Origin: a virus
Taxonomy: Duplodnaviria; Caudoviricetes
Length of the DNA: 44,077 bases
Strand: one strand, 5' to 3'
IMG/VR virus record: IMGVR_UViG_3300047507_000002
Location: 1 to 44,077 of that record
Below are positions 20,838 to 39,434 of this stretch, in pieces; the first letter of the stretch is position 1; each line of letters starts with the position of its first letter. The notes beneath the pieces are model-generated. The model did not search any database, was not told where the DNA came from, and saw only the letters and a list, made by a program, of their open reading frames with translations. Both the position numbers and the translations under genes were made by a program.

Positions 20838-22286
20838 TCAACCTCGCCATGTATTAGAATAAGAAACCTTGATTCCCTGAGTCCCTGATTTATATTGAGT
20901 AAACCCGAAATTCGCCTTGCATGCAGCCATTACTAAATCGTCATGTGAGCCTTCGGCTGCCTCCATCCTACCGTTTTCGCCAATCTGGAAGGCAAAAAAC
21001 TCCTTGATTGCGGGGATATAGTGAATTTTCACCCCACTTCTTATCGCCTTCTCCATCTCTATGAGGTCTTTATCCCTTGTTCTTCCACTTTCTATATAAC
21101 CTAACTTCTCTCTTTTCTTGTCAGAGCAGTAAATCTTCCCTTTATCATATCCTAAAGCCACCAAATCACCTAAATAAGTAGTCCCGAAGGCATCGGCACC
21201 GCCGATAACTCTCGGACAGTAGTATTCTTTTAGTAATTCATGGCTCATAAAGGCAAAGGTATCGGGTAAAATCTGATTGGAATGAATCACGGCACACAAT
21301 TCTCGGCTTAAACCGTCTTTCCCCTCTATCCAGAGGACGGAATAATCTCCACCACGTCCTTCCGCCATGTCCACACCAGCGATATACTGGACTCCGACCT
21401 TCGGATGATGATAGATATGAATAACACCTTGACGAATTTCCTCTTCTTTAAGGGCTTCTTGCTGAAGTTTCTGGAGAATACCAGCGTCAAAGACTGTTCT
21501 TCCTGTAATCGGGCTTAATGCCTCTTCTTCTGTCTTGGGATAGTCTGCCTTAAACTGCCACTCTAAGTAATAGTCTCTTTTAACTCTCTCGAACCACTCA
21601 TTATTTCTACTGGGAACGGCATCACAAGGAATGAAAATTGGATAAAAGTTATTTCTCCCTGCTCTAGCCTCTCGCCAAAGTGTCTTGAAATGAGAGTCTA
21701 AAATAGTCGGGTCGGCGGTTGAAACGACAATCCCGTGTGCCCCTGCATCTATTGTGGGTTTAAGATGTGCCCAGTTTTCTTTAGCGTTAGGGTGAAACTC
21801 ATTCTCATCCCAGATTACTAACGAAGCAGTCTCACCTACTCCTGCGTATTCCGTTGAGGGTAAAGTATGAATCCGACTGTGTTTCCCCTCAAAATCAATC
21901 GAGAATACGCTATCGTGCCCTGTTTTCAGTTGAAGATACTTCGGTAACTGGCTATAAATAAACTTCGCCTTTCTTAATAACTCCGCAGCCTCAGTCTCCC
22001 CCTTGGAAATCATAATCACATTCCCGCCTGTCTTATAACACCACCAAATCGCTATTGCTGCTAGAGTCCATGAAATCCCAACCTGCTTACTTTTAAGAAC
22101 GATTATTTGAGTGTGTTCACAAATCGCCTTGATAAACTCTACTAAATGAGGCCACATCACATACTTGATAATCTGATTCGTGGTGGCATCCAAAATCTTG
22201 ACATACTCAAAGAACTTTAACGGATTAAGTATGTCTATCTTCTGGCCTATCTGCTCTATGATGGGAAGTTCTGTTTCAGTTGGCAT
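20838..22286 (-). CDS. terL: Terminase large subunit
   Basis: Walker A-like LKSKQVGIS, Walker B VIWDE, nuclease motifs GVDMAEG and HDDLVMA. Confidence 0.95.
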   Translation of the reverse strand: MPTETELPIIEQIGQKIDILNPLKFFEYVKILDATTNQIIKYVMWPHLVEFIKAICEHTQIIVLKSKQVGISWTLAAIAIWWCYKTGGNVIMISKGETEAAELLRKAKFIYSQLPKYLQLKTGHDSVFSIDFEGKHSRIHTLPSTEYAGVGETASLVIWDENEFHPNAKENWAHLKPTIDAGAHGIVVSTADPTILDSHFKTLWREARAGRNNFYPIFIPCDAVPSRNNEWFERVKRDYYLEWQFKADYPKTEEEALSPITGRTVFDAGILQKLQQEALKEEEIRQGVIHIYHHPKVGVQYIAGVDMAEGRGGDYSVLWIEGKDGLSRELCAVIHSNQILPDTFAFMSHELLKEYYCPRVIGGADAFGTTYLGDLVALGYDKGKIYCSDKKREKLGYIESGRTRDKDLIEMEKAIRSGVKIHYIPAIKEFFAFQIGENGRMEAAEGSHDDLVMAACKANFGFTQYKSGTQGIKVSYSNTWRG

Positions 22287-22654: not shown

Positions 22655-22733
22655 GGGCAGGGCTGGTGTGCTTACTCACGCCATTTGACGGAGTGTGCTG
22701 AGACTTTTTTCCCGCCAGTCTTGCACCCTGCCT
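22655..22733 (-). ncRNA. Candidate structured RNA, three-way junction (copy A)
   Basis: Stems GGCAGGGT/GCCCTGCC, AGACT/AGTCT and TGG-GTG/CAC-CCA; homologous to 30193-30262. Confidence 0.55.
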
Positions 22734-23361: not shown

Positions 23362-23451
23362 TTAAAGAAGCCAGCGAAGGAAAAGAATCAAGCCATAGAT
23401 AGCAGAGACGCAGAGGCAGAGCATAAGAATAGCTATAATGATTCTCTTCAT
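23362..23451 (-). CDS. Putative 29-aa membrane peptide
   Basis: MKRIIIAILMLCLCVSAIYGLILFLRWLL; ATGA overlap with the TerS stop; below the ORF-track cutoff. Confidence 0.45.
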   Translation of the reverse strand: MKRIIIAILMLCLCVSAIYGLILFLRWLL

Positions 23452-23810
23452 TCGATTGTCCTGACCTCGCCCTCTATCACCTTGGGAAGCAAGGCTCTAT
23501 TGGCTATCTGGAACCGTTCTATTAGAAGGTCTATCTGGTCTGCACTCAACTGTATTGTCTGTGTTACATCAAGGCTAACTGATTGCACAGGCTTGCCCAG
23601 TCTCCTATTAAGCAGCTCAATTGCACTCTGTAAGGCTACTGTGTCGGCTGTATAGAGTCCAGTAGGTTCGTTACAATGAGGACAGATAACTTGCTTACCT
23701 TTAGACCACTCCTGAAGGTTGTGGATGATTTGTTCAATGTTAATATCCTGTATTGCATCTCTTAACTGTCTACCAGGCTTCTTTTTTCTACCAGAGCCTA
23801 TACCACCCAT
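23448..23810 (-). CDS. Terminase small subunit-like protein
   Basis: N-terminal GGIGSGRKKK and AIELLNRRLGKPVQSV motifs; upstream of TerL; contains a CPHC insert. Confidence 0.65.
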   Translation of the reverse strand: MGGIGSGRKKKPGRQLRDAIQDINIEQIIHNLQEWSKGKQVICPHCNEPTGLYTADTVALQSAIELLNRRLGKPVQSVSLDVTQTIQLSADQIDLLIERFQIANRALLPKVIEGEVRTIE

Positions 23811-24408: not shown

Positions 24409-24437
24409 TTGACAAGTTAGAGAGAGAGATTTAGACT
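24409..24437 (+). promoter_or_regulatory. sigma70-type promoter of the rightward early cassette
   Basis: TTGACA-N17-TAGACT. Confidence 0.8.
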
Positions 24438-24443
24438 TAAGCA

Positions 24444-24454
24444 GTTCTTTAACA
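24444..24454 (+). promoter_or_regulatory. boxA-like antitermination element
   Basis: GTTCTTTAACA at the predicted transcription start (rrn boxA consensus TGCTCTTTAACA). Confidence 0.65.
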
Positions 24455-24503
24455 ACTGAATATAGCAGGCGAGGCAGGCAGGGTAAAAGGAGATAAGACC
24501 GAG

Positions 24504-24701
24504 ATGGCAAACTTAGCAAATTTAGTAAAAGCGTTCCGAACTAATGTCCGAGAAGGCAACCCTTGTGAGATGAGATTTGATGGTGAGACCATCCAGCTCT
24601 ACCCTCTATTAAAACCCAATCATTCTGAAAACGACATTGGGGTTTGGAATAGAACTCGTGTGGGAATGGTAACAAAGCCTAGTAGTCCCAGAAAAAGCTA
24701 A
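24504..24701 (+). CDS. Hypothetical early protein (enclosed by an inverted repeat)
   Basis: 65 aa; AAGGAG SD; first gene after the promoter. Confidence 0.7.
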   Translation: MANLANLVKAFRTNVREGNPCEMRFDGETIQLYPLLKPNHSENDIGVWNRTRVGMVTKPSSPRKS

Positions 24702-24799
24702 GCCCCTAACAGCCCTGACCTCGCCCTCTATATCCAGAGGTTAAGAATACTCATAAGACCGAAGCGAGTCCAGCTCGGCAGAGTAAGGGAGAAAGGAAA

Positions 24800-25065: not shown

Positions 25066-25269
25066 ATGACAATAGAAACTCAAGGAAAGCCAAATTGTCA
25101 ACTCACGGGTGAAGACGGGAATGTGTTTGGCCTAGTTGGTAAGGTATCCAAGACGCTCAAACGAGCAGGACAACCAGACAAGGCAAAGGAAATGGCGGAC
25201 AGAGTATGTAAGTCTGGCAGTTATGCCGAAGCAATCGCCATAATGGGCGAATATGTAGAAATCTCATAA
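25066..25269 (+). CDS. Conserved small phage early protein
   Basis: KPNCQLTGEDGNVFGLVGKV...SGSYAEAIAIMGEYVEI, a recurrent phage/MGE family; AGGAGG SD. Confidence 0.8.
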   Translation: MTIETQGKPNCQLTGEDGNVFGLVGKVSKTLKRAGQPDKAKEMADRVCKSGSYAEAIAIMGEYVEIS

Positions 25270-25309
25270 GTCCTGACCTTCATGGCAGGCTGAGAAGAAG
25301 AGGAAACAG

Positions 25310-29149: not shown

Positions 29150-29326
29150 GCTTTTTCTAAGAAGCTGGAAAACCACGAATACGCTTTGGCTCTTTATTTC
29201 ATGCATTATAACTTCGCTCGGCCACATAAGACTTTATCTAATCCTTATCCAAAATCACCGGCAATGGCAGCAGGATTAACTAATCACGTTTGGACGATTG
29301 AAGAAATTGTAAGATTGGCTGAGTGA
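29150..29326 (+). pseudogene. C-terminal remnant of an IS1-family transposase
   Basis: Translates AFSKKLENHEYALALYFMHYNFARPHKTL...SPAMAAGLTNHVWTIEEIV*, the characteristic IS1-family C-terminus; the N-terminal and catalytic parts are absent. Confidence 0.8.
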
Positions 29327-29343: not shown

Positions 29344-29417
29344 CCGCCAGTAGCTCAGTTGGATAGAGCACCTTCCTACTAAGTCGGTGGTCATGGGTTC
29401 AAGTCCCATCTGGCGGG
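29344..29417 (+). tRNA. Arg-type tRNA body with ACT anticodon and mismatched anticodon stem (variant or pseudo-tRNA)
   Basis: CCGCCAG TA GCTC AGTTGGATA GAGC A CCTTC CTACTAA GTCGG TGGTC ATGGG TTCAAGT CCCAT CTGGCGG G. Confidence 0.8.
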
Positions 29418-29586
29418 CACGCATTATAAAGGAATGCCACTCCTCAATGGTATTCATAAATTCGTGAATATCAATTACTACGCCTTTTAGGATTTTCATT
29501 GAAGTTCAAGAGGAGCTAGCTCGGCTTCTTATCAGCGACCCGCCGATGTTGGTTTCATCAACCTAATCGCACACTAGCCCAATTAT

Positions 29587-30192: not shown

Positions 30193-30262
30193 AAGGTAAG
30201 GGCTGGCTTATGCTTATCCCATTATTGCAGAGGCTTCGCTTTCGCCTTGCTGCCCTCACCCC
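30193..30262 (-). ncRNA. Candidate structured RNA, three-way junction (copy B)
   Basis: Stems GGTGAGGGC/GCCCTTACC, AGGC/GCCT and TGG/CCA; lies in the 5' UTR after the promoter at 30289-30317. Confidence 0.55.
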
Positions 30263-30392: not shown

Positions 30393-30647
30393 TTATATCC
30401 CCCATTCCTTGAGCTTGGATTGCCACCCTCTCTCAGAAAGAATGATATAGTCTTTCTCTCCTAGATGACGATGTTGTTCTACCCACTCCCTCACTTCCTT
30501 CAACATAAAGTTTCTGCCAGCCTTAAAACTGATTTCAGCTAATAATTCCTCTCTTTCCCTTAGTCCTGCAAGAGTGCCATTATTTAATACTTCTATAGAA
30601 ATTTTACTGGTAGCTTCCTCAATACAAGTTGTTAATTTAGATTCCAT
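30393..30647 (-). CDS. Small hypothetical protein (LKEWGI paralog family)
   Basis: AEISFKAGR...WQSKLKEWGI; AGGAGG SD. Confidence 0.75.
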   Translation of the reverse strand: MESKLTTCIEEATSKISIEVLNNGTLAGLREREELLAEISFKAGRNFMLKEVREWVEQHRHLGEKDYIILSERGWQSKLKEWGI

Positions 30648-35788: not shown

Positions 35789-36958
35789 TTAACCCCAATT
35801 CATAACTGTTGTATAAACTTTTGACATTTCATTCCGTTGGAATTTTTCGGATAGCTTTCTCATTACAGCAACTTTATCAAGCCTTATATCTATTTCTATT
35901 GCCCTATACTCAATTAATACTCTTTCTCTAAAAGCAAGTGTGTCTTCAACTATCTTAATGCAGGACTCAATTAAATAATGGTTTGCCTCGACCTTATGAG
36001 CTTCAAATTCCTCTAGTAAAAGCTGTTTTATGAAATCCACTGTGAGTTTATCGATGTTCTCTAGAGCATTCCAACAAGTCGCCAAGATGGAATTCCTTGA
36101 AATACCTTTGCCTTGAGAAAAATGGATTATCTCGATAGTCTCTGGTTTACATTTGTATTGAATAGTCCTTTTGTCTATAGTTTGGAGATACCAAACAGCA
36201 CCTTCTACGCCCGCATAAGTGTTATTGTCCAGTTTCCGTAAGTTGCCTTCTAATTGTTTTTGAAGGGCAAGGTAAGAATCTTCGTAGTTTTTATCTATAG
36301 TAGCTAGCAACTGCACTTTGGATAATCGGCAATCTATTTGTGTCGGAGGGATGATATTTCCTGCGTTTGTTACGCCAAATAAAAGAGCATACGCCAATGG
36401 CACATCATAAATAACAAGGTGAGGATTCCGTGCTCCATATAATTCAAAGGATAAGTTAAAATTATGGCTGGTGAGCAACTCGCAGATATAATCAAAATCA
36501 TTATCTGCAACTTCATTCCACATAGCAAAAAAGTTACCCCATTTTGAGCCAGCATTAACAAAGGGCATCAACCTCGTTTTACAAGTGTAAAAAATAGTGT
36601 TCCCATCAGTGTAGGAATAAACAAGTATGTTTGTGCCGTCCAGTTTCTCAAAGATTTCTATTTTATTGGCAACAGGGAAACCATACTTTCTTTCACCTGT
36701 CTGTGTGGTAGTAAATGGGTAGTGCATTTTGGGCGTTCCCATAATAAGTTGTTCTTTGACTGGGATTCCATTGATGTGAGTAATTATCAACGCTCCATAA
36801 TATTCAGTTGCCCTTCTGGAAATATATCCCCTAACTTCGTTTTGCGGATTGAAGGGGTCTATCTCACAAAATTCATGGTAGTCTTTCCCAAATAATTCTT
36901 CGACTTTCATTCCTTCTTCCTGAGTCATACTAGCTCCATTACTTCTTGCCTTCTTCAA
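35789..36958 (-). CDS. ATP-dependent RNA ligase (Rnl family)
   Basis: Nucleotidyltransferase motifs I (EKLDGTN), III (FELYG), IV (EGAV) and V (YKCK); no OB domain apparent. Confidence 0.85.
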   Translation of the reverse strand: MKKARSNGASMTQEEGMKVEELFGKDYHEFCEIDPFNPQNEVRGYISRRATEYYGALIITHINGIPVKEQLIMGTPKMHYPFTTTQTGERKYGFPVANKIEIFEKLDGTNILVYSYTDGNTIFYTCKTRLMPFVNAGSKWGNFFAMWNEVADNDFDYICELLTSHNFNLSFELYGARNPHLVIYDVPLAYALLFGVTNAGNIIPPTQIDCRLSKVQLLATIDKNYEDSYLALQKQLEGNLRKLDNNTYAGVEGAVWYLQTIDKRTIQYKCKPETIEIIHFSQGKGISRNSILATCWNALENIDKLTVDFIKQLLLEEFEAHKVEANHYLIESCIKIVEDTLAFRERVLIEYRAIEIDIRLDKVAVMRKLSEKFQRNEMSKVYTTVMNWG

Positions 36959-39220: not shown

Positions 39221-39434
39221 TTATCCCCCATTCCTTGAGCTTATCCTGCCACAAGCTCAGTTTGAAATTACAGAAATCATGGTCTTCACCTTCCAAGAAA
39301 TAGAGGTCAATGAAATCCACCACTTCCTTTCTTCCCTCTTGTTTACCACCCTTAAAAGAGAGTTCAACTTGGTCTTTTATAGCTTCAAGAATATCCTCTA
39401 AAACCTTTTCACTTAGGGTTGTTTTAGCTTCCAT
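39210..39434 (-). CDS. Small hypothetical protein (LKEWGI paralog family)
   Basis: MEAKTT...ELSFKGGKQEGRKEVV...WQDKLKEWGI. Confidence 0.7.
   Translation of the reverse strand: MEAKTTLSEKVLEDILEAIKDQVELSFKGGKQEGRKEVVDFIDLYFLEGEDHDFCNFKLSLWQDKLKEWGINAS

Follow-up and report, generated by a model that had tools for sequence, protein, structure and literature searches.

The locus and its parts

The question raised by this locus is whether a phage can express a single small gene from a unit built like a bacterial rRNA operon, with a boxA followed by the two strands of a long helix that encloses the gene. It stems from an original prediction, made from the letters of the DNA, which placed the first ORF of an early operon in such a structure and went on to suggest that its mRNA might be excised as a unit, that it might be circularised by a phage RNA ligase and that the arms share their ends with another structured RNA of the same genome. 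The window, i.e. the whole stretch of 44,077 nt that was analysed, carries a 127-nt terminal repeat, which indicates a circular phage genome. Most of its genes are read leftward. TerL lies at 20838-22286 and a putative terS, called by position and without a family match, at 23448-23810, divergent from the small ORFs of a short operon that is read rightward and begins at 24504. The best TerS homologue (82%) is named as a Dehalococcoidia bacterium and another as Zixibacteria, so that the Dehalococcoidia can be proposed as host only tentatively. Comparison of the DNA with cultured phages gave no meaningful match, and the RNA genes matched by Rfam in the window are two tRNAs and nothing else. ARAGORN places a serine tRNA with anticodon ACT at 29344-29418 (plus strand), which is adjoined by an HTH gene and resembles a host-derived piece; the short fragment beside it at 29186-29326 is one that we take to be like the C terminus of a transposase. 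A short repeat (30396-30426 and 39222-39252) lies at gene ends, where several small leftward ORFs have a KLKEWGI-like C terminus.

The promoter, the boxA, both arms and the 65-aa ORF all lie at the coordinates originally given to them, and all are on the plus strand. The sigma70-type promoter TTGACA-17-TAGACT (24409-24437) recurs in the syntenic position of L001, L035, L054, L063 and L065; taken together, the promoter-like sites of the window are no more numerous than chance would give (20 against 22.2 expected). It is followed by the boxA word GTTCTTTAACAA (24444-24455), the sole exact copy in the window, which with its extension, GTTCTTTAACAACTGAATA (24444-24462), also makes up the outer part of the long stem on its 5' side. 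The format is that of the rrn boxA of E. coli and of the Bacillota. The 5' arm (24460-24484) includes a CA at 24479-24480 that forms the short strand of a conserved internal loop, and just within the stem a Shine-Dalgarno sequence AGGAG can be read at 24488-24492. The cargo ORF (24504-24701) has four homologues with 58-78% identity; searches of its 65-aa product against Pfam, PHROG, Atlas and PDB folds were without a match and its structure model is weak (pLDDT 64). The 3' arm (24702-24733) contains the long strand of the internal loop, CTAACAGC, at 24706-24713, and an anti-boxA (24735-24748), predicted to pair with boxA, forms the outer end of the cassette.

Folding of 24440-24745, a check that the original prediction had called for, gave a z score of -2.5, with one of 100 shuffles folding equally well. 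When 24444-24484 was scanned against the whole genome (7316 windows, mean -16.1 kcal/mol, sd 4.9) with its own antisense strand excluded, the best partner was 24697-24752, at -42.4 kcal/mol. The arms are thus predicted to pair as had been supposed, but the extent first given to the stem was too short, as boxA is also predicted to pair with 24735-24748 (pair probabilities mostly 0.6-1.0). The predicted helix is therefore one of about 34 bp between boxA plus the 5' arm and the 3' arm plus the anti-boxA.

Recurrence in viral and metagenome contigs

An unbiased set of sites came from a scan of viral contigs in which boxA was the only word sought and which yielded at least 127 distinct boxA words. 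Among the 127 listed, 83 could be tested and the other 44, which were without a testable ORF, were dropped. Pairing of the leader with the sequence after the stop codon was scored as a stem at z < -3 and E < -20 with a Shine-Dalgarno sequence present. By this test 37 of the 83 testable sites among the matches listed, the window included, have a stem around one ORF, compared with 16 of 351 ORFs without boxA at the same loci (matches listed), although the latter were given a more generous test. The remaining 46 of the 83 listed sites failed, some of them being real cassettes slightly under the cut-off (e.g. L035-2, L059 and L061). The cargo of the 37 stem-positive sites among the matches listed falls into 34 protein families, and at the level of sequence the architecture and its recurrence around unrelated ORFs are established. 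This enrichment of stems around boxA-led ORFs, together with the related cassettes described below, lends strong support to the likeness to rRNA operons that had been proposed, and pairing of the arms around different ORFs in related phages is no less strongly supported.

Several further features recur. Among the matches listed, G-U pairs outnumber A-C mismatches in the stems by 62 to 23 (p 3e-5), a strand-specific bias that has to be read with the caveats that the sites were picked with an RNA energy model which itself leans to G-U and that a G-T bias equally fits single-stranded DNA. An anti-boxA GTTAAR lies 3' of the arm in 12 of the 37 listed cassettes, compared with 6 of the 146 windows that served as control (p 7e-6), and a simple pattern places a promoter immediately 5' of 17 of the 37. 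In the cassettes among the matches listed boxA is the sole invariant word and in every case has the same orientation as the cargo gene, and many cassettes have arms that form near-perfect duplexes of 25-30 bp. A cassette of L135, near 2500 on the plus strand, encloses an ORF of 442 aa, so that the design extends beyond tiny genes. A 135-aa ORF of L035 (near 5008, plus strand) is without boxA and has a strong inverted repeat of its own around it. In unrelated phages (L003, L005, L007, L008, L014, L025, L026, L029 and others) a promoter and boxA lie directly 5' of apparent tRNA arrays, some of them repeated, which suggests that rrn-type antitermination has been borrowed for phage tRNA operons.

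Exchange of arms and cargo

At the syntenic site of L001, whose TerL is 80% identical to that of the window, the same promoter and a boxA precede a stem of 27 bp that is unrelated in sequence, includes three G-U pairs and surrounds a 121-aa ORF. On contigs anchored by TerS the unit is found singly, in tandem (L035 and L065) or further down the operon (L061), and in L051 and L064 the site is empty, a near-identical promoter being present and the cassette absent. The tandem cassettes of L035 and L065 each have their own boxA, as do those of L099, L199, L200 and L222. The arms of the window enclose other cargo in L099, L221 and L222 (a search with the bare 18-nt arm word gave five of eight matches in unrelated contexts) and, conversely, one cargo family has differing arms in three cases, L065/L221, L199/L090/L065 and L099/L195. 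A contig of run X3, counted with L099 as one phage because of identical flanking letters, has 24447-24492 and 24695-24744 in common with the window and differs in both insert and flanks, so that the common segments mark the ends of the unit. In L044 (196-240, minus strand) a truncated boxA is fused straight to a local hairpin behind a promoter, as would be expected after deletion of a cassette. Judged from these alignments, arms and cargo swap independently and the cassette is a modular unit exchanged among phages.

Internal loop and local hairpins

In the inner stem of the window CA stands opposite CTAACAGC, and the same 2x6-8 nt internal loop, in which CA or CT faces a strand of 6-8 nt with AAG or AACAG, is present in 12 long-range stems and absent from the majority of cassettes, roughly two in three of the 37 among the matches listed. 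The flanks of the loop in L099 are compensatory (TAGA CA AGG / CCT ATAAGT TCTA). A local hairpin at 24749-24784 (plus strand), directly 5' of the RBS of ORF 24800, carries the loop in circularly permuted form, and a second with the same loop, at 25262-25295 (plus strand), has an arm-like stem, CCTGACC/GGCAGG, before the RBS of ORF 25310. Counting the window operon, relatives and unrelated phages there are 14 such local hairpins, 11 that make up the model and 3 found by it, and 12 of the 14 directly precede an RBS and start codon. The hairpin pattern found 12 where shuffles gave 1, 1 and 0 (L117 was left out as a likely chance match), with four of seven matches of the pattern search lying in unrelated contexts. 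Double changes occur at 6 of the 10 hairpin pairs, a count that is partly circular because the set was picked by a pattern demanding pairing. The loop hairpin is also seen in the unrelated L209 (2000-2033, plus strand) and L211 (1966-2033, minus strand), in the latter twice in tandem behind repeated promoters with boxA-like words.

A search of the arms and local hairpins against Rfam found no match to a ribozyme or other family. Some relatives have hammerhead-like cores whose ends lie no more than 14 nt from boxA (6 of 127 sites among the matches listed), scoring 31.8-33.3 bits with the Rfam Hammerhead_II model, i.e. below the 37-bit cut-off, and these RNAs and the loop hairpins occupy the same intergenic positions. 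The internal loop, which the arms share with the local hairpins of the operon, probably serves for recognition or cleavage, in the role that hammerhead-like ribozymes have in some relatives.

Proposed mode of action and its alternatives

Taken as a whole the analysis makes it rather probable that 24444-24748 is a swappable single-gene cassette that is laid out as a pre-rRNA module and works as one. With boxA bound by Nus factors of the host, the 5' arm would stay close to RNA polymerase while the 3' arm is still being made; on its emergence the predicted helix would close and be cut by RNase III, giving a one-gene mRNA whose ends would be paired and protected and whose stability may thereby be affected; the operon as a whole would be punctuated by interchangeable RNA devices. 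In the published accounts the rrnTAC keeps boxA near the exit channel, and delivery of the 5' strand to its complement has been proposed (PMC8632103, PMC10250234); with a complete or stable rrnTAC, cleavage by RNase III during transcription is reported to rise from 12% to 56% (10.64898/2026.03.17.712431). It is reasonable to suppose that the cassette mRNA is excised by RNase III, but pairing does not imply cutting, since the leader-trailer helix of E. coli is reported to matter even without RNase III (PMC10250234). As an integrase and a reverse transcriptase are not associated with the cassettes in the 35 records listed, these may have spread by recombination between repeated boxA, arm and RBS words, as PeSL cassettes do. 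A bolder version, in which the phage not only plugs a single gene into the host pre-rRNA machinery but also employs the loop as a new, permutable cleavage element (a ribozyme or the site of a dedicated nuclease) that releases an end-paired, possibly closed RNA, is improbable.

The main rival to this reading is that boxA serves antitermination, loading Nus factors stably for the operon, while the stem remains uncut and is protective, or else buries boxA and so switches Nus off after the first gene. The predicted unpaired fraction of boxA does fall from 0.72 to 0.27 once the anti-boxA has been transcribed, the phage promoter-boxA units ahead of tRNA arrays have no ORF-enclosing stem, and in the helix of the window interruptions follow one another at intervals of 3-7 bp, which could make it a poorer RNase III substrate. 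For antitermination one boxA per operon would be enough, yet every tandem cassette has its own before its own arm, and the long near-perfect duplexes formed by many arms are typical RNase III substrates, which speaks against an uncut stem; we consider this explanation unlikely. A further alternative makes the internal loop the active element, either as a self-cleaving RNA or as the site of a nuclease or RNA-binding protein, whether local or split around the ORF, and reduces the stem to a scaffold. The retention of the loop in long-range stems and local hairpins, the compensatory flanks in L099, the position of the hairpins before start codons, their presence in L209 and L211 and their filling of the intergenic positions of the relatives' hammerhead-like RNAs are all in its favour. 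The absence of the loop from most of the listed cassettes, its very small size for a ribozyme, the lack of a match among Rfam ribozymes and the partly circular covariation count weigh against it, and it must be regarded as quite improbable.

It might also be argued that the arms act as DNA, as attC-like recombination sites formed by single-stranded hairpins or inverted repeats that move the cassette, and that the RNA fold is incidental. Cassettes have clearly been gained, lost and swapped, and the G-T bias is compatible with single-stranded DNA. An integron or tyrosine recombinase was absent among the 68 ORFs of the window, however, and the tyrosine recombinase family PF00589 was found in 1 of the 35 records listed, so the comparison with integron attC sites was negative; that with retrons, whose msr-msd is bounded by a1/a2 arms, likewise, the reverse transcriptase PF00078 occurring in 0 of the 35 listed records. 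Arm sequences are moreover unrelated between cassettes, and the only word that does not vary is boxA, an RNA signal fixed on the sense strand of the cargo. We regard a role of the arms as DNA sites as very improbable.

RNA ligase, RNA copy A and terS

The least probable of the readings considered, and one that we find hardly credible, is that after excision the mRNA is closed into a circle by the RNA ligase that the phage encodes at 35789-36958. The product of this gene does match PHROG 562, a T4 Rnl1-like family (E 7e-8), and Rnl1-like ligases join 5'-phosphate to 3'-hydroxyl ends, which are those left by RNase III. A homologue of the ligase was nevertheless found in 0 of 38 boxA-bearing records among those listed, a search that took in some records failing the stem test, and in 0 of the 11 that are at least 90% complete; fragment records are unable to show absence but near-complete ones can. 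PF09414 occurs in 1 of the 38 listed records, and the ligase is missing from the two closest relatives of the phage, in which TerL is 80% identical, so this part of the original prediction fails. As the phage has two tRNA genes, tRNA repair is the ordinary reading of the ligase. A sequence search for a related solved structure found none.

The words said to be shared between the arms and the closing stem of RNA copy A do exist, at 22725-22733 and 22658-22665 on the minus strand, but the link is superficial. CAGCCCTG occurs three times where 1.0 is expected, a number reached by 10 of 100 shuffles. The words are paired continuously in the closing stem of copy A and straddle the loop in the cassette, i.e. 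they lie in a different register, and related arms alter the shared word (AGTCCTG in L035, L099, L131 and L222) whereas the homologues of copy A retain it. The connection between cassette and copy A was rejected on these grounds. Copy A is a separate conserved RNA with close homologues in L055 and L074. Copies A (22658-22733, minus strand) and B (30195-30260, minus strand) are related structured RNAs without an Rfam match, one of them lying after tRNA-Met and the other behind a second TTGACA-17-TAGACT promoter.

An exact identity of 18 nt between the 3' arm (24714-24731) and the 3' end of the putative terS (23460-23477) makes the early RNA antisense to terS mRNA in the window. Antisense control of terS was rejected because the match reaches 12 nt in 0 of 39 terS homologues (11 nt in the best), and the identity is read as a one-off.

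Comparison with known systems

Phage genes set between RNA processing signals have been described before. Hammerheads flank single variable small genes in prophages, where it has been proposed that they divide a long transcript so that each gene has its own mRNA (PMC3088659), and according to the same account circular products were sought and none found (see also PMC6765202). The cassette of the window is without a hammerhead, its device consisting of a protein-dependent signal and a long-range helix. The PeSL of the T4-type phages RB49 and phi1 resemble the cassettes in their repeated regulatory words, their place in a variable early region and their recombination-driven shuffling, but as described they consist of a promoter and local terminator hairpins, with neither boxA nor a gene-enclosing helix (PMC2839356). 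In T7, too, a host promoter is followed by a boxA word in the early operon, which is reported to be processed by RNase III (PMC6938266); there local hairpins follow boxA, whereas in the cassettes the helix spans the whole gene and there is a boxA for each. Lambda nut sites are likewise phage boxA elements that load host Nus factors, as the accounts of them relate (PMC8632103, PMC10250234), but the boxA of the cassette is of the rrn type and is followed by a long-range arm; a local boxB-like hairpin after boxA was not found, and the N family was matched by 0 of the 68 ORFs scanned. In the open-access full texts searched no description of boxA-led phage cassettes enclosing an ORF was found; the motif survey of PMC5737381 is a possible source of the loop motif. 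The present analysis appears to contribute an unbiased test of enrichment, the pairing of boxA with an anti-boxA, the independent swapping of arms and cargo, the negative ligase test and the permuted loop motif.

The closest likeness is to the rrn operons themselves. There, as in the phage cassette, a promoter or spacer is followed by boxA and at once by the 5' strand of a helix of 25-40 bp whose partner lies beyond the enclosed unit, with one boxA for each unit. In E. coli rrnB the leader-trailer helix starts directly after boxA, and in the rrn operons of Priestia and Paenibacillus the 23S stalk has boxA itself at its base, paired with a complementary sequence that lies beyond the 23S, just as boxA has its anti-boxA in the window. 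The phage cassette differs in enclosing a Shine-Dalgarno sequence and a short ORF instead of 16S or 23S rRNA, in being mobile, tandem and provided with arms of unrelated sequence, and in that boxB and boxC were not seen. We regard it, on the strength of these sequence features, as a real and new use of known parts. The stable loading of the rrnTAC and leader-trailer helices have been deemed special to rRNA, and a natural and widespread set of short mRNAs on the same plan would mean that the route by which rRNA is chaperoned and processed has been taken over by phages for protein genes. The cassettes yield a candidate RNA motif in two circular permutations, and, being small, natural and available by the dozen, with arms that vary and a boxA at fixed spacing, they are substrates on which the long-standing "delivery" model of helix formation guided by boxA could be tested. 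Their layout would also account for the exchange of fast-changing early genes together with their own expression signals, in a unit that follows the plan of a pre-rRNA module.
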